A stretch of 64,000 nucleotides of DNA from contig NC_090404.1 of the NCBI RefSeq assembly GCF_036365525.1, positions 5,952,001-6,016,000 on the forward strand, in the 5' to 3' direction. Source of the stretch: Heterodontus francisci. Taxonomy: Eukaryota. The notes below the pieces were generated by a model, which was not told the origin of the DNA, searched no databases, and saw only the letters and a list, made by a program, of their open reading frames with translations. The translations under genes were made by a program, and so were the position numbers. Shown piece by piece: positions 5,665 through 33,892 of this stretch (positions within the stretch are counted from its first letter, which is position 1; every line of letters begins with the position of its first letter).

Positions 5665-5712
5665 ATCTGTTCCTGACTGAAAGTCACAGTGGAAGAGACC
5701 TGAGCAAATACT
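5665..5712 (+). pseudogene. Degenerate NAR-TCR D segment (inverted paralog) with an intact-looking 3' 12-RSS
   Basis: CACAGTG(5685-5691)-gaagagacctga-GCAAATACT; spacer is identical to that of the D 3' RSS at 19383-19410; the 5' RSS spacer is deleted. Confidence 0.75.
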
Positions 5713-6035
5713 TCTGTACAATTAATATATTGACTCCCGGGCCTGGATCCTGATTTGTAGGGTTGATGTTATTATTGCTGCAATCTGGTTCAATTTTATT
5801 GTAATTTGCTCCTTTTAGTTATCTCTCTCTGACATTTTTCTCCTTTTATATGATGCGTCCATCTCCAGCCCGTGTTCCTGGGCCATTTTAGTAAGAGTTC
5901 AGGGTCCCAAAAAAAATAGTTTGTACCGACAGGGAATGTGAAACATGGCATGTTGTCTATTAATCTAAACACCCTGGAATAATTGTGCAGCGACAACAAT
6001 CTGGTAATGTGTGGCCAGCAGATTGAGGTGTTGGT

Positions 6036-6127
6036 AGTTGTTGTATCGGGGTGACTGACAGCGGTGTCACTGCGATACAATCATAAATACGTGGATGGAT
6101 CTGGGACGCTGGCGACTGTCACAGCCG
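6036..6127 (+). pseudogene. NAR-TCR J segment paralog (YNHKYVDGSGTLATVTA) with mutated 23-RSS
   Basis: AGTTGTTGT-23 bp-CACTGCG (reads CGCAGTG, CAC lost); coding 6075-6127, phase-1 donor G|GTAAGT; flanks homologous to the J at 18985-19075. Confidence 0.85.
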
Positions 6128-7581
6128 GTAAGTAACTTCAAACCCCGCAGTGTTACGCACTGTTCCAGTGAATGTTCGCCCCAGTTTATTATCGCGATCA
6201 ATATCACTTCAAACCCTTGAAAATAAAGCAGAGTGGTTTTCGAAACCAAGCTTTCCCATTGCAGTTTTAGATTCGGAATAGACTATGAACCAGGAGTAGG
6301 GTCCAGGTTTGAGTCTGGAGAGATGAGGTGAAATCCACACAGAGAAAGCTGTCTGCAGGGTGCCGACCCCATCTGGACCATCAGCAGTTTAACGCGGAGC
6401 TCGGAGAGTCCCCAAAACATCCCAAACTCTTTCTCACTCTGATCCACAATTGGTTTAAAATGAGCGCAGTTTGTCGAGACCCCAGCTTCCGCTCCCACTG
6501 CTCACTGTAACTGAGGAAACTCTGTCTGTCCCTGTCTGTATGGGAAGGGGTGACACAGCTCTCTCTGTCTTGGGTAGGATATTCCATTCTGGGCCGGGCA
6601 GTGTAAATGAGGTACCCCAACATTACAGCAACCCCTTCGATGCCTGCAGTGGCCTGTCCGATACTGACAGTTAAATATGGTACACAAAATAATCCCATTA
6701 CTAAGATAGCAAGTCTGCAAGGGTAAATCAAGGCTGTAGAGCAAAGTAGCGATTTGGTTAAATTCCAGCAGTATGAGGCAGGAACGGACAGCAGGTTTAA
6801 TAACGATAATTGGACCTGAACGACTAAGGCCACATCAGGGAAAAAAGTAAAACGTTAAAATGAAAGGCGTTACATCTGAATGCACAAAGCATCAGTAAGA
6901 AGACAAATGGATTAATGGCACAAATACAGATTAACGTATTTGATCTAGTAGCCATTACTGAGACAAGGTTATAGGGTGAGAAAAATTGGGAACTAAATAT
7001 AAAAGGGTGTGACTTTTGGAAAAAAACTAGGCAAAATGTAAAAGGAAGCGGGTAGGCCGGATAGTAGTACAATATGTCGAGGACGCTAACTATGGAATTG
7101 ACTATCTTAGATCTAGTATTTTGTCACGAGACTGTATGAACTCATAACCTTAAAGTAAAGGATCTTCTGGGGAAGAGTGATCATAAGATGATAGATATCA
7201 TATACAATTTGAGAGTAGTGTAGTTAAGCCCGAAGCTAAGGCCTTAAACTTAAAAAAAATGTGGTATGAGGGGTGTGCAGGGTGAGCTAGATTGGGAGTT
7301 TAGATTAAAATTAAAATATATAGCTCTGCTTCTCTTTCCACAGATGCTGCCAGACCTGCTGAGTGGTTCCAGCATTTCTTGTTTTTATTTCAGATTTCCA
7401 GCATCCACAGTATTTTGCTTTTATTAAAATATATAATGTTCGATAAACAATAGTAACCATTTAAATAAATAATGCCTAATTCTCAACTAACATACATTCC
7501 AATGAAGAATAGAAAACACCACTGGCAAAGTGGTATCGTCATCTATAGCTAGAAAAGTTAAAGGTCTCATTGCATTCATAT

Positions 7582-13350: not shown

Positions 13351-13611
13351 AACACGGGCAACTCGCAGCTGGAAGGAAGTTCGGTTTCGATTGGTTCAGT
13401 TAATGAATGGCGCATGGAGAGCTGCAGCTCCCACAGTTCTCAGCGGCTGGGAAATTTGTGGCACGGGATGCGCTGTACTGGGAGAATGGGTCCCACATGC
13501 ACAATTCACCAACCGCTTCAACAAAATAAAGCGAAAGTGCGAGAAATACTCAGCAACTCTGGCAACATCTACGCAGAGAGGCAGAGATAACGTTTATTCC
13601 CACCACGTTCA

Positions 13612-13650
13612 AGTATTTGTCCAGCTCTCTCCGTGCTCTGTATCACTGTG
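13612..13650 (-). other. Second (distal) 23-RSS downstream of the supporting V
   Basis: CACAGTG(13650-13644)-23 bp-ACAAATACT(13620-13612). Confidence 0.85.
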
Positions 13651-13674
13651 TGTCTGTAATCCTCACCATGTTCA

Positions 13675-13713
13675 GGTTTTTGTACAGCTCCCTCCGTGCT
13701 CTGTATCACCGTG
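13675..13713 (-). other. Proximal 23-RSS of the supporting V
   Basis: CACGGTG(13713-13707)-23 bp-ACAAAAACC(13683-13675). Confidence 0.92.
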
Positions 13714-14019
13714 TTATGCGCCGACTCAGTGCACAGTAATACACAGCGGAGTCACTCAGTTGCAGTTTGGAAATTTTGAACCGGCTGATTTTCTCGGCAG
13801 GATCGATAGAAGCAGAAATTCGCCCCCCTACTGCGTTTTCTTTATTCTCCTCTCCTGAAGTGTGTCTCTGAAGCAGGTATTTCGGAGCCTGCCCAGGGGA
13901 CTGACGGTACCAGTGTACTGTGTACTGACAGAACCCTGAATATTCGCAGCTTAAAGTAACAGTGTCACCGGCAGCAGAGTGTTGTACAGGCGGACTCTTT
14001 GAGACCAAGGAACTGGAAT
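13714..14019 (-). CDS. NAR-TCR supporting TCR-delta V segment (no leader exon seen; extra Cys in CDR1)
   Basis: DSSSLVSKSPP...VTLSCEYSGFCQYTVHWYRQ...SDSAVYYCALS; acceptor ttggcag| at 14020 is in phase with the J donor at 18985; 23-RSS. Confidence 0.88.
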
Positions 14020-14804
14020 CTGCCAAATAAAAGTGAATATTATTAACTATTTAGACGCTGTTTACGCGGTGAAACTTGTCAATCGCAGGAATAGTTATTG
14101 TTTTCGCGGTAACTTGCTTCATTTGAAGCCTGTTGGAAATGTATTCACCGTTATTGAGATACGAACCAGTGCGGAGATGATGTGTATTTTATTTTGCACA
14201 GCGAGCTGTTATGATCTGGAATGCAATGTCAGAATGGGTGGTAGAAGCAGATTGATATTAACTTTCAAACAGGAATTGTATAATTGTTGAACCAGGAAAA
14301 AAAAATGCACGGGATATGGAGGAAAAGCAAGGGCTGCGGGAACAATTGGACAGCATCTACAAAGATGATGGGCCGAATGGCATCCCTCCATGTTGTATGA
14401 TTCAAAGATTCTATTACATTTCTGTGTCTATTTTTCTTGGTGGAAGTAAAACTGGAGGAAAAATTTTAATATCAGTGAGAGAATCACTTTCCAAAAATTG
14501 TTTGTCCGAGAGTATCCACCTGTGTTATATCACTACGCACAGGAAGATCCAACAGAGAGTAATGAAGTTCATCTGCGCAGACTGAGCGAAACTAATAGCG
14601 AACATCGGTTGTCAAATGTCAGTCGTTTACAACAGTTCAACACATCACGATTGCTCGCATTTCACTCCATTTGTCTACTTTCATCAATGGGGCCCAATTT
14701 TCTCCATTGCTCTTTAATTTGAAAAAGAATGCAGTTAGTTAAATTTTATTTCTACATTTACTTTGTGTTGTTTGAGGTTTTTTGCCATCATGGGAACTTA
14801 TACC

Positions 14805-14960
14805 GAAGTCTCTCAGTTGTCAGTTGGGTTCAGTTTGCGCAGTTTCCGCAGTGGTTTAACTGTTACTCACTGGGAACCTGCTCTTCCGGCTCTGTGACAA
14901 TTTCAATTCCTTCAGCTCATTGGTTGATTCTCTCCCGTGTTCTCCAAGCGGAGTTTTCTC
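14805..14960 (-). promoter_or_regulatory. Candidate germline promoter/enhancer in the J to supporting-V intron
   Basis: CCAAT (14923-14919), ETS-like CCGGAAG, TGAGTAA, AACCACT, CGGAAA; conserved in the inverted paralog at 10815-10975. Confidence 0.45.
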
Positions 14961-15269
14961 TGAGCTTTCTGTTGTACAGAATCTGCAGAACAGGAACAGG
15001 CCATTCGGCCTGTCCACTCCAACCACTCCACCTGGCAGCGAGATCCACATTCTGTCCTGTCTCTTGGTAAATGTATTCTGCTTAATTCATTTATTCCATC
15101 AGTGCCATCATATATTCGTGTCTCCTTATTCTGGATTCACCCACAAAAGAAATATTTTCGCCATGTCCAGCCGTCCATAATTTAAAAGACTTCCGTGAAG
15201 TATTCATATTATTCTTCATTTTCCAGGGGATAAAAAGCACAGCCTGTTCAAAATTTGCAGATGCTTGTT

Positions 15270-17405
15270 GATTTTTTAAAAAAAATCAGTTTCTCAGTTT
15301 TTCAGGAGGAAGATACATTCCTCTAAGACACAAAAACCCAACAGGATAGATGAATTAACTATAAATAACAAAAACAGTTAAAATTTGCATTAGATCAAAG
15401 GAAGTGGCTCATAAGGTTCCAAGAAAAAGTGGTAAACCCGAGGATTGGGGGCAATTTAGAATCCAGCAAAGGATGACCAAGAAACTGGTAAAGAAAGGGA
15501 AAAGTGAATATTAATGCAAGCAAGCGAGAAACATAAAAGTAAACTGTAAAAGCTTCTTTAGGTATGTGAACAGGAGAAGATTAGCAAGGGCAAACGTGGG
15601 CCCATTACAGGCGGAAACAGGACAATTTATACTGAAGAATAGGGAAATGGTGGAGAAACTAAACAATTACTTTGTGTCTGTTCTTGCGGAGGAAGATACT
15701 GAAAATCTCCCAGAAATACTAGGGGACCAAGGGACTTGTGAAAATGAGGAACTTAGAGACATTAGTATTAAGAAAGTGGTAGCACTCGAAAAATAAACTG
15801 GATTAAAAGTTGATAAATCCCCTGGACCAGATGAACTACATCCCAGAGTGTTGAAGGAGGTGGCTATAGAGATAATGGATACATTGGGGGTTATCTTTCA
15901 AAATTCTACAGATTCTGGAAAGGTTCCTGCAGACTGGAAAGTGGCAAATGTAAACCCACTATTTAAGAAAGGAGAGAGAGAGAAAACGGGGAGCTATAGA
16001 CCTGTTTGTTTGACGTCAGTATTAAGGAAAAGGTTAGAATCTATTATAAAGAATGTGATAACCAGATACTTAGAAAATAATGTTATGATTGGGTAGAGTC
16101 AACATGGATTTATGAAAGGGAAATTATGTTTGACAAACCTGTTGCAGTTTTTGTTTGAAGATGTTACTTGTAGCATAGATAAATGAGAACCAATGGATGT
16201 GTGCATTTGGATTTTTAGAAGGCTTTTGATTAAGTCCCACACAGGAGGTTAGTAAGCAAAATTAGAGCACATGGGATTGGGGGTAGTACACTGGTATGGA
16301 TTGAAAATTGGTTGATAGAGAGAAAACAGAGAGTAGGAATAAACGGGCCATTCTCAGGATGGCAGGCTGTGACTAGCGGGGTACAGCAAGGATCAGTGCT
16401 GGGACCACAGCTGTTCACAATCTATATACATTATTTGGATATAGGGCCTAAATATAATATTTTCAAGTTTGCCGATGACACAGAAATAGGTGGGGAATCT
16501 AAATTGTGAGGAAGATGTAAGGAGGCTGCAAGGGAACTTAGACAGGCTAGATGAATAGGCAAGAACATGGCAGATGGAATATAATATGAATAAGTGTGAC
16601 ATTATCCACATTGGTAGAAAAAACAGAAAGACAGAGTATTTATTAAATGGTGAGAGGTTAGGAAGTTTGTTGACCAAAGGGACCTGGGTGTTCTGGTTCA
16701 TGAGTCACTAAAAGCTAACATACAGGTGCAGCAAGCAATTCGGAAGGCAAATGGTATGTTGGCCTTCATTGCATGGAGTTTTGAGTACAGGAGTAAAGAA
16801 GTCTTGCTGAAATTGTGCAGAGCCTTGGCGAGACCGCACCTGGAGTATTGTGTACAGTTTTGGTCTCCTCATCGAAGGAAGGATACACTTGCCATAGATG
16901 GAGTGCAGCGGAAGTTCACCAGACTAATCCCTGGGATGGCGGATTGTCTGATGAGGAGAGACTGAGGAAACTGTGCCTGTATTCTGTAGAGTTTTGAAGA
17001 ATGAGAGGGGATCTCATTGAAACTTGCAAAATTCTTACAGGACGTGACAAGGTGGATAGAGAAAAGATGTTTTCCCTAGCTGGTGAGTCTAGAACGAGAG
17101 GATATAGTCTTAGAATAAGGGGCATTTATTCATTTAAAACTGAGATGAGGAGGAATGTCTTCACTCAGAGGGTGGTGAATCTTTGGAATTCTCTACCCCA
17201 GAGAGCTGTGGAAGCTCAATCATTGAGCATGTTCAAGATAGAAATCGATATATATCTGATACTAATGACATCAATGGATATGGGGATAACACGGGAAAGT
17301 GGCATTGAGGTAGATGATCAGCCATGATCTATTCGAATGGCGGAGCAGACTCGACGGGCTGAATGGCCTACTCCTGTTCCTAGATTCTTATGCTCCTATA
17401 TTCCT
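15270..17405 (+). mobile_element. CR1 LINE, 5'-truncated and degenerate
   Basis: RT motifs [32 protein letters not shown]. Confidence 0.9.
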
Positions 17406-17439
17406 TTGAATGTAAGAAATCCAAGCTGATAATGTAAGA

Positions 17440-17960
17440 ACATCAGTAATAGGAGCAGGAGTAGACCATTTCACCTTTCAATTCTGCCCCGTCATTCAAT
17501 AAGATCAAAGCTGATCATCTACTCCATCTTCCCTCACTATCCCTAGGTCCTTTAATTCATTTAGTATCCACAAATCTATCGAACACTGCCTGGAATATAC
17601 TCAACCACTGGGCATCCACAGCTTTCTGATGTATAGAATTCCACAGACTCACAACAACGGTTTGACTGAAGACATTTGTCCTCAGCTTAGTTCTAAATGA
17701 CCGACCCCTTGTTCTGAAACTGTAACCCCAAGCTATAGACTGAGGAATCACTGCCCCAGCACCTACCCTGTCAAGGCCCTTAGGAAATTTATATGTTTTA
17801 ACCTCTTATTCTTCTAAACTCTACATAATATATGCAGTGTCTTTTCAAACTCTCCTGATAGGACTATCTCTTTATCCCAGGAATCAGCCTAGTGGAGCTT
17901 TGATTCACTCCCTCTGAAGCAAATAGATCCTTCCTTAAGTAAGGTGTTCAAAATTGTACA
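17440..17960 (-). mobile_element. CR1 3' fragment
   Basis: ORF 17557-17751 resembles the CR1 ORF2 C-terminus. Confidence 0.7.
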
Positions 17961-18984
17961 CCGCAGTACCCTGGAGAACACCGGAGTTCATCACTGCCCT
18001 TCCCTCCATAAACCTCACCCATCACTCTGGTGTCGTATTTATTTTGAACGGCTCAGAATTCGTTTAATATTTCTATCCATTTCGGTGATTTTTATTTGCT
18101 GGTTTTAAATAGATTTTCCTCCAGTCTGCAGTTATTCCCTGGAGTGTTCTTGATCTCCTTTCGAAGAACATTTGCACCTCACCCTCACTCCCTCAGTGTC
18201 CAGTATTGTTCCAATTAACACTGAACAGGTAGACAGTTAAATTAATCCAATCCAATCTCTTAAACATCAATATTCAATATATGGAGGTATCTGCAGCTGC
18301 AAACATTCGTATTTCAGTCTGAGGGCGGAAATGGAGGGAAATGATTGGATGAAGGCAATTGAAATAGATTTAATTTAAAATAGAACTAATTGCAGTCACT
18401 GAATCCCAATAATAAAATGCCATCGGCACCTCCAATAGTGTCGCTTGTATCTGAAGCCTGTTTTGTCATACTGCCGATTTTCTGCTGCTGTAGATATCGG
18501 GCCGGCCGCTGCCGTATTGTGTTCACTCTCCCACTATTCACTTTGTCCGGCACAGACTGCAATCCTCTTCCCGGGAGGGAGCTCTGTGACCCAGCTCCCG
18601 TGCTCACGAAGACATGTAACAGCGGGAGCGGGGTCAGAGTGTCGTCAAACCGACCTCATTTAAACCAGTTAGGAGTGAGGGAGAGAGAAAGTCTGGGATG
18701 CTGATGTGATGCCCCGACATGCCTGTTAAACCAATGCTGATCCAGTTGGGGTCAAACGTACCCAGGCCAGACTGCCTTCTTTGTGGGTGTCTGACATCTA
18801 CTCATTCTGGACTCACTCCCGGACCTGAGTCCTGGTTCATATTCTGCACCCCCCAATCAAAAACTGCAATGGAAAAGCTCCATTTGAAATCGCTGTTTGA
18901 AGGGGATTGAAGTGTTACTGATCATAATAATAAAGTGACGATTAATATTGTGCCTGTAACACGTCGGGGTTTGGAGTCACTTAC

Positions 18985-19075
18985 CGGATGAGACAATCAC
19001 CACCGTCCCGGATCCATCCACAGCACCAGATCGACGCACAGTGACACCGCTCCCAGTCAGGCCGGTACAAGAACT
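18985..19075 (-). CDS. NAR-TCR J segment (RRSGAVDGSGTVVIVSS) with 23-RSS
   Basis: Coding 19036-18985, G-x-G-T motif without F/W (IgNAR-J-like), donor G|GTAAGT; heptamer CACAGTG 19037-19043, 23-bp spacer, nonamer ACAAGAACT 19067-19075. Confidence 0.9.
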
Positions 19076-19382
19076 ACCGGCACCTCAATCTGCCGGCCAC
19101 ACATCACCAGACAGTCGGCGCTGTCCAATTATTCCAGGGGGTTTAGATCAATAAACAATATTTCATGTTTTACATTCCCTGTCGGTTCAAACAGTTCTTT
19201 GTAAGAGTCTGAGTTCTGAGTAAAATGGCCCAGGAACACAGGCGGGAGATGGGCCCTTCATATAAACAGAGAAACATGTCAGAAGGAGGAAATTTCAACA
19301 AAATTAAACCATTTACAGAGATAATTACATCAACCCTGCAATTCAGCACCGAGACCGGGAACTTATATTTAACTTGTACAAT

Positions 19383-19451
19383 GGTATTTGTTCAGGTCTC
19401 TTCCACTGTGACCTCCCCAAAAACACAGTATTTCAAACCAACACAAAATCC
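19383..19451 (-). other. NAR-TCR D segment (TTTTTGGGGAGGT, 19423-19411) flanked by 12/12 RSSs
   Basis: ggtatttgt-12-cactgtg | 13 nt | cacagta-12-acaaaatcc; open in all three frames (FLGR, FWGG, FGE). Confidence 0.9.
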
Positions 19452-19779
19452 CCCGGTATTTGGTAAGATGTTACATGGGACATCAGTTAAACGACGGGAC
19501 TGTGGTTCCCAGTTCCTACTGATAGATCAGGAACCCGTCCGCTGTTAGGGATTTGTAACTGGGATAGGTCATTCCCAATTGCTGTTCACTGACACCAGTC
19601 CCGGGAAAGACATTACCATCCGCACACATTCGGCATTTATAAAACTCAAGATGTTAACGGCAATAATCAAATCTCATTATAAACGAGACTGTGGAGCAGA
19701 CGGTGCGAGGCGGAACTGCGGGGTTTAACGGAGGATTAACTCCGCTTTTTCATTTGTCTCTGTAATAATCTGCAGTGAG

Positions 19780-19817
19780 AGTATTTGTACCGCGGGAAGC
19801 CGAGGCCCATCACTGTG
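19780..19817 (-). other. RSS of NAR-TCR V (22-bp spacer, 23-type)
   Basis: CACAGTG 19817-19811, spacer 19810-19789, ACAAATACT 19788-19780. Confidence 0.9.
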
Positions 19818-20290
19818 TGTTTCTGTAGTACTCAGCTTTACAGTAATAGGTGGCGGTGTCTTCAACTCTCACATCCCGAATTTCCAGCGAAAATGTCCTT
19901 TTTGCCTTTACCGTCCTCACAACGAATCGCCCTCCGCTGGAGATCCGCTCCCGCTCTCTCCCGGTCGGGGTTTGTCTGAAGAAATATCCACTGTTTAAAT
20001 TATAAGCATAACCATGTAAAACACAGGTGATGGTGAGAGACTGACACTCCTTCCTGGTCACCGTTGCCGGGGTCTGTGTCACTGACTGACTGAAAGAGCC
20101 TGGAAATTAAACACAGAGAGTTTAATGGGCCATCAGAGCCGAACCACACAACGAGTTTAAAACCCTAGACAGTGTCTGTAATTCGGATGGACTCGGGCAG
20201 TTTTATATTAAATCCACACAATGTCGGTTTGTTTGCTCGGTACTCACGGGGTAAACAGACACACAGGGTGAAAACAAGGAGGATTCCCAT
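19818..20290 (-). CDS. NAR-TCR V segment: leader exon 20290-20248 (MGILLVFTLCVCLP) plus V exon 20099-19818
   Basis: SVTQTPATVTRKECQSLTITCVL...YFFRQ...ERISSGGRFV...FSLEIRDVRVEDTATYYCKA: IgNAR-like loss of CDR2, extra FR1 Cys, canonical splice sites, open frame. Confidence 0.9.
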
Positions 20291-20793
20291 CGTTCTGCTG
20301 CCTGGAGCTGATGGTTTATATGACGGGGAGCTGGAGACTGCAGCCCTGGACTGCTCTGGGAGACTGGACCTCAGAGCTGGACTGAAATACTTGCGGGGGA
20401 TCGAGTTGATTTGCAGAGGGCAGTGTCCCGGAGATGATTGATGGGCCGCACGTTTCCCGGGTCTCTGACTGTGTGTTGTGTGAATAAGAGACAGGTTTAA
20501 AGAGGGAACCTGCAGTTTTCTGTCGCTTCATTGGGTCTGTGAGTCCGATGTGAAATCCCCTCCCACATTAGTCTGATGTGCAGGGGGTGGGGCTGGGGGA
20601 GTTGTTCTGTCAGTAGAAGCTGCCGCCCTCCTTTCCCCACAGTAATGAGCTGGGAGGTCGCTCCAAGTGTTTTTATTGGGTGGTGTTTGTTGAGGGTGGA
20701 ATGTGGGCCCAGGACACCGGGAGAATCCCCCCTCCCCGCTCTTATTCCAATAGTGCCGGGGATTCTTTAACATCTTTAACATCTTTAACAAAT

Positions 20794-21585
20794 TTTCATT
20801 GCAGCAGCTTTTTCGGGAGCAGAGTGTGAGCGAGTGAGCAGCTGGGAAGGTCAGTTTGAAAGTAAGTTTAATTTCCTTTTGTTTTTCGGCGGAGGCCAGG
20901 GGGCTGCTGGGTAAGTAAAACACTATATATTTGGGCGGTTTAAAATAACTTTCCTTTCATTGCAGCAGCTTTTTCGGGAGCAGAGTGTGAGCGAGTGAGC
21001 AGCTGGGAAGGTCAGTTTGAAAGTAAATTTAATTTCCTTTTGTTTTTCGGCGGAGGCCAGGGGGCTGCTGGGTAAGTAAAACACTATATATTTGGGCGGT
21101 TTAAAATAACTTTCCTTTCATTGCAGCAGCTTTTTCGGGAGCAGAGTGTGAGCGAGTGAGCAGCTGGGAAGGTCAGTTTGAAAGTAAATTTAATTTCCTT
21201 TTGTTTTTCGGCGGAGGCCAGGGGGCTGCTGGGTAAGTAAAACACTATATATTTGGGCGGTTTAAAATAACTTTCCTTTCATTGCAGCAGCTTTTTCGGG
21301 AACAGAGTGTGAGCGAGTGAGCAGCTGGGAAGGTCAGTTTGAAAGTAAATTTAATTTCCTTTTGTTTTTCGGCGGAGGCCAGGGGGCTGCTGGGTAAGTA
21401 AAACACTATATATTTGGGCGGTTTAAAATAACTTTCCTTTCATTGCAGCAGCTTTTTCGGGAGCAGAGTGTGAGCGAGTGAGCAGCTGGGAAGGTCAGTT
21501 TGAAAGTAAATTTAATTTCCTTTTGTTTTTCGGCGGAGGCCAGGGGGCTGCTGGGTAAGTAAAACACTATATATTTGGGCGGTTT
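20794..21585 (+). repeat. Five near-identical 161-bp tandem monomers forming the CR1 5' UTR
   Basis: cattgcagcagc recurs at 20797, 20958, 21119, 21280 and 21441. Confidence 0.93.
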
Positions 21586-33069: not shown

Positions 33070-33586
33070 GGTTTGTGTACGGTCCCCACTGATCTTTGCT
33101 GCACTGTGCCTCCATCGCACAGAAATAGGTGGCAGTGTCTGTCACTCGAGTGTCACTCACAGTCAGAGTGCTGCGCTTCTCTGCTGCAATGAACCGAGCC
33201 GTGATCCTGTTCTGATCACTGGTACCGCTCGCCAGGTGCTGCACGGTTCGGTCCCGGTATTGTCTGTACCAATGTAGGATCAGTCCTCCGACTGTGGTGG
33301 AACAGGTCAACGATGCAGTGTCTCCCTCGATAACAGCCACTGACTCAGGAGACTGTGATACCTCTTCACTGCCAGCGGCATCTGAGAAAAAATATGGAAA
33401 TATAATATATAATTTATATAATAGAACACAATGTAACATAACGCAATAAAATACAACAGAACAGAATTCAATATAATATATAAATGTGTAAAATATTCCT
33501 GACAAACAGAGATAGTGACCACACTCACACAGAGGACAGAGTAAGAAATCCAGGGAGATAATAACTAAAGTGAAGTTCAGCTTCAT
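33070..33586 (-). CDS. Intact TCR alpha/delta-type V segment: leader 33586-33529, V exon 33381-33109, 23-RSS 33108-33070
   Basis: MKLNFTLVIISLDFLLCPL | EEVSQSPESVAVIEGDTASLTC...LHWYRQ...DTATYFCAME; CACAGTG-23-ACACAAACC; in-phase GT/AG. Confidence 0.88.
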
Positions 33587-33892
33587 GTCGGATCCAATCC
33601 ACTTGTGTAAAGTAACTGTCGGCAGATCCAGTCGGAGAGAGGCTCCCGGAGAAGGCAGCGCTGTTTTGTATCAAAGTGAACCCGACACCAGGACACTGTG
33701 TCCGCGGGTCGCTCTTGTGATCACAAAGTGAAGAGTGAGGGAAGTTCAGGCTCAGCAATGAGGGAGGGTGGGAGGAAAACTCATGCGTCAGAGCATCAGC
33801 GCGTCACCCGGAATCAAACCCGGAAATGGAAACAGAGAGAACACAAATAGTGAACAATGTCTGTGAGATCCGCTCAGGGAATTCTTTAAAAC

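Follow-up and report, generated by a model that had tools for sequence, protein, structure and literature searches.

A segment of the genome of the shark Heterodontus francisci, lying within the 64,000-nucleotide (64-kb) window that was analysed, places an IgNAR-like variable segment, a D and a J ahead of a second variable exon that lacks a leader, and so raises two questions: to which receptor system does the locus belong, and is this copy of it used? The first can be answered plainly. The locus is an unrearranged germline NAR-TCR cassette composed of a leader, an IgNAR-like V, one D, a J and a leaderless supporting V; this identification, made in a first-pass annotation, is confirmed by the agreement of anatomy, splice phases, homologs and published hallmarks. 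On the second question, we consider it fairly probable that this cassette of the shark TCR locus rearranges twice, giving a delta chain with two variable domains. Inspection of the sequence places all elements of the cassette on the minus strand with coordinates unchanged from those first noted, and its exons, segments and signals as far as the supporting V are as follows.

20248..20290, minus strand: leader exon (MGILLVFTLCVCLP), 43 nt, ATG at 20290, phase-1 donor CCC/GTGAGT
19818..20099, minus strand: NAR-TCR V exon, IgNAR-like, without CDR2, FR1 Cys (KECQ), Phe at the canonical Trp (sequence, VNAR alignment, homologs)
19780..19817, minus strand: RSS of V, 22-bp spacer, CACAGTG / ACAAATACT (RSS scan)
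19424..19451, plus strand: 5′ RSS of D, 12-bp spacer, CACAGTA / ACAAAATCC (RSS scan)
19411..19423, minus strand: single D segment, 13 nt, open in three frames (sequence)
19383..19410, minus strand: 3′ RSS of D, 12-bp spacer, CACAGTG / ACAAATACC (RSS scan)
19037..19075, plus strand: RSS of J, 23-bp spacer, CACAGTG / ACAAGAACT (RSS scan)
18985..19036, minus strand: NAR-TCR J, DGSGT motif, phase-1 donor (sequence; a transcript contig with zero differences)
14020..18984, minus strand: intron between J and supporting V, 4,965 nt, with interspersed repeat fragments (splice sites, leader scan)
13714..14019, minus strand: leaderless supporting V-delta exon, CDR1 Cys in GFCQY (sequence, homologs)

The leader and the NAR V are separated by an intron of 148 nt that ends in the acceptor TTTCCAG/GC at 20099 (minus strand). 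Residues 5-88 of the V aligned to residues 3-86 of solved VNAR domains with no gap (best E 1.4e-19), the best PDB matches of the V being mostly shark VNARs, and this gapless fit confirms the absence of CDR2 that was claimed for it together with a 22-bp-spacer signal, which begins at 19817; the N-terminal V is thus of the IgNAR type and has a normal leader by alignment, leader exon and splice. The D described as having 12-bp spacers on both sides is indeed a 13-nt segment (19423-19411) between two such signals, and a relaxed scan between V and J gave no further D flanked by a matched pair of RSS. The J, for which a 23-RSS and a DGSGT motif had been reported, carries both (19036-18985, spacer of 23 bp), reads ...VDGSGTVVIVSS and ends at the donor TCCG/GTAAGT. 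The supporting V was said to lie about 5 kb downstream, in phase with this donor, and the acceptor TTGGCAG/ATTCC at 14019 bears this out, as the 4,965-nt intron joins the two exons in phase as TCC G/AT TCC. A leader scan of the same intron returned three candidates and no convincing leader exon: the best, located within a repeat and followed by a weak donor, had a hydropathy of 2.04, whereas the two true leaders score 3.09 and 2.76. By phase and leader scan, the supporting V-delta is therefore leaderless and continues the frame of the NAR J, and lacking a leader it would be expressed only behind a rearranged NAR VDJ. Upstream of the coding sequence, the leader ATG is preceded at about 30 nt by a TATAAA motif, and the region 20218-20450 (minus strand) is strongly conserved in contigs of other organisms, with 4 differences in 123 nt (run X3) and 8 in 232 nt (run X4).

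The recombination signals are far too dense to have arisen by chance. Six RSS with two or fewer mismatches to the general RSS consensus occur in 13550-20450; 300 first-order Markov simulations gave 0.007 on average and never more than 1. The cassette has open frames, in-phase canonical splice sites and, at every segment, 12/23-compatible signals, and the separate sets of RSS that two V(D)J events call for in NAR-TCR are present.

Homologs place the cassette within its family. A search with the NAR V among longer proteins gave 58 matches from 128 candidates, at 56-81% identity, 56 of them bearing shark or ray names, and in 57 of the 58 a supporting-V-like domain follows the NAR V in tandem; the supporting V, used as a lone query at near lengths, gave 3 matches among 7 candidates. 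The extra cysteine pair and the replacement of Trp by Phe to which the first-pass annotation drew attention (RKECQ, GFCQY, YFFRQ) are all seen in the sequence, and they recur across these proteins. The FR1 Cys (KECQ here) is found in 57 of the 58, the remaining one being not aligned at that position; Phe stands at the canonical Trp in 58/58, as in the YFFRQ of this copy, where the Trp of WYRK is absent; and the CDR1 Cys of the supporting V (GFCQY here) is present in 55 of 57. DGSGT was counted by script in 38 of the 58. The available part of PMC1845163 lists the hallmarks of NAR-TCR in nurse shark and elephant shark as an IgNAR-like V that has a leader, carries a Cys in the a-b loop and lacks the WYRK Trp, followed by a leaderless supporting V with a CDR1 Cys, and the cassette agrees with all of them and shows no defining difference from the NAR-TCR of cartilaginous fishes as set out there. 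Since both added cysteines and the loss of Trp are published and family-wide, their occurrence here is no surprise. NAR-TCR has been described before and sits in the TCR delta locus, as stated in the accessible portions of PMC5931798, PMC3149040 and PMC6795676; the cassette is a member of that known family, and its layout is ordinary for sharks.

Most of these homologs are automatic gene models whose V-J links often run through RSS DNA, so that they document the germline layout of the family rather than its expression. Two of them, P0039 and P0046, resemble chains after full rearrangement, having two junctions and continuing into a J and the start of a constant region; the predicted fold of P0039 has a mean pLDDT of 79.4, in an output of confidence and secondary structure that holds no distances. 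The gene models (P0001-P0058) are misnamed or blank, appearing as Down syndrome cell adhesion molecule-like, Ig gamma-1 heavy chain-like or uncharacterized. In nurse shark, germline blocks of V-D-J plus supporting V have reportedly been mapped.

This copy is probably functional, as the first-pass annotation had held; the same annotation had it use an IgH-like 23-12/12-23 RSS logic with a single D. The logic itself (22 to 12, 12 to 23) and the one D are directly visible; the claim of function is less secure, since the spliced and joined V contigs are paralogs, the NAR V is unusually diverged and neither a J-delta nor a TCR constant exon was found in the window. The reading that competes with it accepts a true NAR-TCR cassette and holds that the copy, at the edge of the locus, is rarely used or decaying, being transcribed unrearranged, drifting and contributing little to the repertoire. 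We regard this reading as unlikely, yet it accommodates several observations, the foremost of which is the end branch of the NAR V, which is 0.32 long in the tree against a median of 0.088. Such a branch could equally reflect diversifying selection on an antigen-binding domain or the lack of a close ortholog among the sequences, and the supporting V has a normal branch (0.051, median 0.058, in a quick tree); the copy falls in no starred group of either tree, these having been built without an IgNAR outgroup and, for the supporting V, by the quick procedure. Rare residues point the same way as the long branch: P44, R47, V63 and R67 of the NAR V are each found in 0-2 of the 58 homologs, F80 of the supporting V in 0 of 57, and the J ending VVIVSS is absent among the 60 J ends tallied. 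The diverged NAR V and this J ending are what is specific to the copy relative to other NAR-TCR. The rare residues touch no canonical Cys, splice site or signal CAC. More broadly, none of the cassette segments has a stop, a frameshift, a lost canonical Cys or a broken splice site, and all of its recombination signals keep CAC, which argues against decay; the neighbourhood, with its four broken V segments and inverted D-J relic, argues for it.

Transcript contigs bear on the same choice. They came from four runs presumed to be RNA (X1-X4) and representing three samples, with nearly all of the cover in one, which weakens the support that they lend to a decaying copy. In three of the four runs (X1, X2 and X3), contigs lack the leader-V intron, with its GT-AG ends where they were predicted. 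At the listed V positions in 19898-19958, all contig depth in X1 and X2 differs from this copy, an X2 contig that stops at 19828 differs from it at 21 positions over 158 nt, and the contigs that carry the leader-V splice and the V-J joint are about 87% identical to this V; because their letters differ from those of the window, the V contigs derive from paralogs, as would be expected if this copy contributed little. The contig match to the leader and UTR of this copy is common to paralogs as well. In contrast to the V, an X1 contig (record 6) matches the D-J interval and the J over 18985-19386 with 0 differences and ends at the J donor.

A single V-J joint was found among the 15 of 173 joints listed. 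It occurs in X1, runs from 19828 to 19021 with 27 letters between, has a depth of 47 and is in frame. Its junction peptide, DGTGVDTRY, occurs twice in the genome gene model P0002 (XP_067869961.1), and for that reason the joint may not be somatic; it possibly represents the germline-joined, invariant NAR-TCR V of a paralogous cassette, or it may be a cryptic splice or a filled model. The D core of this cassette was rejected as the source of the junction, with a match of 5 bases at most by eye. Among the papers listed, none reported a germline-joined NAR-TCR by title or abstract opening. A joint from J to the supporting V was absent from the same 15 of 173 joints, in tables swamped by intron repeats, which speaks neither for nor against such a splice, and contig cover falls to near zero at 18632-18862, just behind the J donor, a gap in contigs that carries no weight.

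A different identity altogether is barely credible and largely refuted, whether the segments are taken for the V-D-J of an IgNAR cluster or the downstream V for a separate, conventional V-delta that has a leader of its own and stands beside the V-D-J by chance. It draws on the VNAR-like V and on IgH constant exons in the window. Against it, IgNAR clusters have three D segments in the available text of PMC4279169 where this locus has one; the IgH exons are found upstream, and no constant exon was found behind the J; the identity of the V to double-V proteins is 56-81%, as opposed to about 46% (39/84, counted by eye) to the best VNAR structure; and the three leader candidates in the intron are all poorer than true leaders. 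The resemblance to IgNAR lies in a V fold without CDR2 and in a V-D-J minicluster. In an IgNAR cluster, as far as that text describes it, the three D segments are followed by a J and IgH constant exons, whereas here one D and a V exon after the J mark a NAR-TCR cassette; the FR1 Cys and the Phe in place of Trp are further features in which the locus is unlike IgNAR.

The wider window contains other immune gene segments. Two IgH C1-set constant exons lie at about 61.4-61.8 kb and 59.2-59.6 kb (minus strand), about 40 kb upstream of the cassette, the latter having a secretory-type tail and matching the terminal domains of IgM and IgA. This tail ends in TIAFQS and has no cysteine; IgM tails carry a penultimate Cys. 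The position of the two exons near the cassette fits the linkage of IgH and TCR alpha-delta described in the available part of PMC12227049. An intact L-V of the conventional TCR type, short in its CDR1 and CDR2 regions, is located at 33109-33586 (minus strand), with a 23-RSS at 33108, and a stray heptamer stands upstream of it at 33700. The four broken V segments, with stops, frameshifts or lost cysteines, are found in both orientations, at about 32.5-32.8 kb (minus strand) and at 35.2-35.5, 37.0-37.2 and 37.7-38.0 kb (plus strand). The inverted NAR-TCR D-J relic (5683-6493, plus strand) is 72% identical to 18621-19412 and retains the 3′ 12-RSS of D and a DGSGT J with its donor, while the J heptamer is broken (CGCAGTG); no V or supporting V was found at the relic, and no J-delta or TCR constant exon in the 64-kb window. 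A tandem array at 20794-21585, 500 nt upstream of the leader, comprises 4.9 copies of a 161-bp unit with 99% matches. Another, at 327-1136, has 9 copies with a period of 84 bp, a spacing that we take to be typical of C2H2 zinc fingers.

The end of the cassette holds a feature that was at first overlooked. The span had been drawn to start at 13612, and this coordinate is a real RSS end; the RSS in question is the second of two tandem 23-RSS behind the supporting V.

13675..13713, minus strand: first 23-RSS of the supporting V, CACGGTG / ACAAAAACC, containing an in-frame TGA (RSS scan, translation)
13612..13650, minus strand: second, tandem 23-RSS, CACAGTG / ACAAATACT, 63 nt behind the first

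The heptamer of the first signal is non-consensus. An assembly artefact was rejected as the source of the pair, the 63-nt units being identical at merely 50 of 63 positions. Because of the TGA inside the first signal, a join made at the second would be expected to yield no productive chain and to leave the first still usable. Gene models of other species were compared at the level of peptides rather than DNA, most of them ending at the first signal and hence uninformative. In a first test of 25 gene-model tails against RSS-only peptides, the second signal appeared in 1 (P0036) of the 9 tails that show the first. For a follow-up, 11 tails that read through the first signal were picked, 8 of them long enough, and scored by uncorrected p values from shuffled tails: P0035 (Pristiophorus) matched the linker and second RSS of the window with p 0.0005 and in the exact 21-codon register, P0036 (Stegostoma) with p 0.0005 and P0047 (Hemiscyllium) with p 0.0085, followed by P0030 and P0058 at about 0.03 and by P0041, P0042 and P0052 at 0.06-0.12. 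On these peptide matches, the doubled signal is likely shared by other sharks. The read-through peptide of the pair, used as a query in a weak search, met 1 candidate and nothing at E up to 10. The tandem arrangement might be an old, conserved device of elasmobranch NAR-TCR, in which a first join at the outer signal would be non-productive, or that signal would recruit RAG, and the inner one stays available, so that the second rearrangement would be ordered or given a second chance; we hold this to be quite improbable, and the slow evolution of shark sequences could preserve an RSS duplication without selection. Primary locus papers aside, none of the papers listed on tandem RSS in sharks or on NAR-TCR and RSS reported such a pair by title or abstract opening, and the topic is not covered in the available parts of PMC3457774 and PMC2275272.

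Returning to the reading of a cassette that rearranges twice, we propose the following course of events. Under the established 12/23 rule, RAG would join the D to the J (12 to 23) and the V to the D (22 to 12) within the cassette; the first 23-RSS of the supporting V would then serve to join this V to D-delta and J-delta segments that lie beyond the window; and splicing would connect leader, NAR VDJ, supporting VDJ and constant exon. The tip of such a chain is viewed in the literature, to the extent that the sources were available, as an unpaired, single-domain antigen-binding structure with a proposed interdomain disulfide, and ligand binding by NAR-TCR is still unknown to the field according to the accessible text of PMC7615758. 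A comparable plan is seen in TCR mu of marsupials and monotremes, which in the portion of PMC3457774 available likewise has three extracellular domains and a V-D-J in tandem with a supporting V. The likeness is convergent, the V genes of TCR mu being VH-like, and the marsupial supporting V is germline-joined, whereas that of sharks is split and has RSS.

The cassette opens no new biology, NAR-TCR having been known, reportedly, since a discovery paper of 2006. Its value lies partly in annotation, where automatic models call such cassettes uncharacterized or misname them, and partly in the clean germline map of RSS, single D and splice phases, which enables junction analysis in this species. A functional role for the tandem RSS of the supporting V, if there is one, would be relevant to the way in which a single allele coordinates its two V(D)J events.
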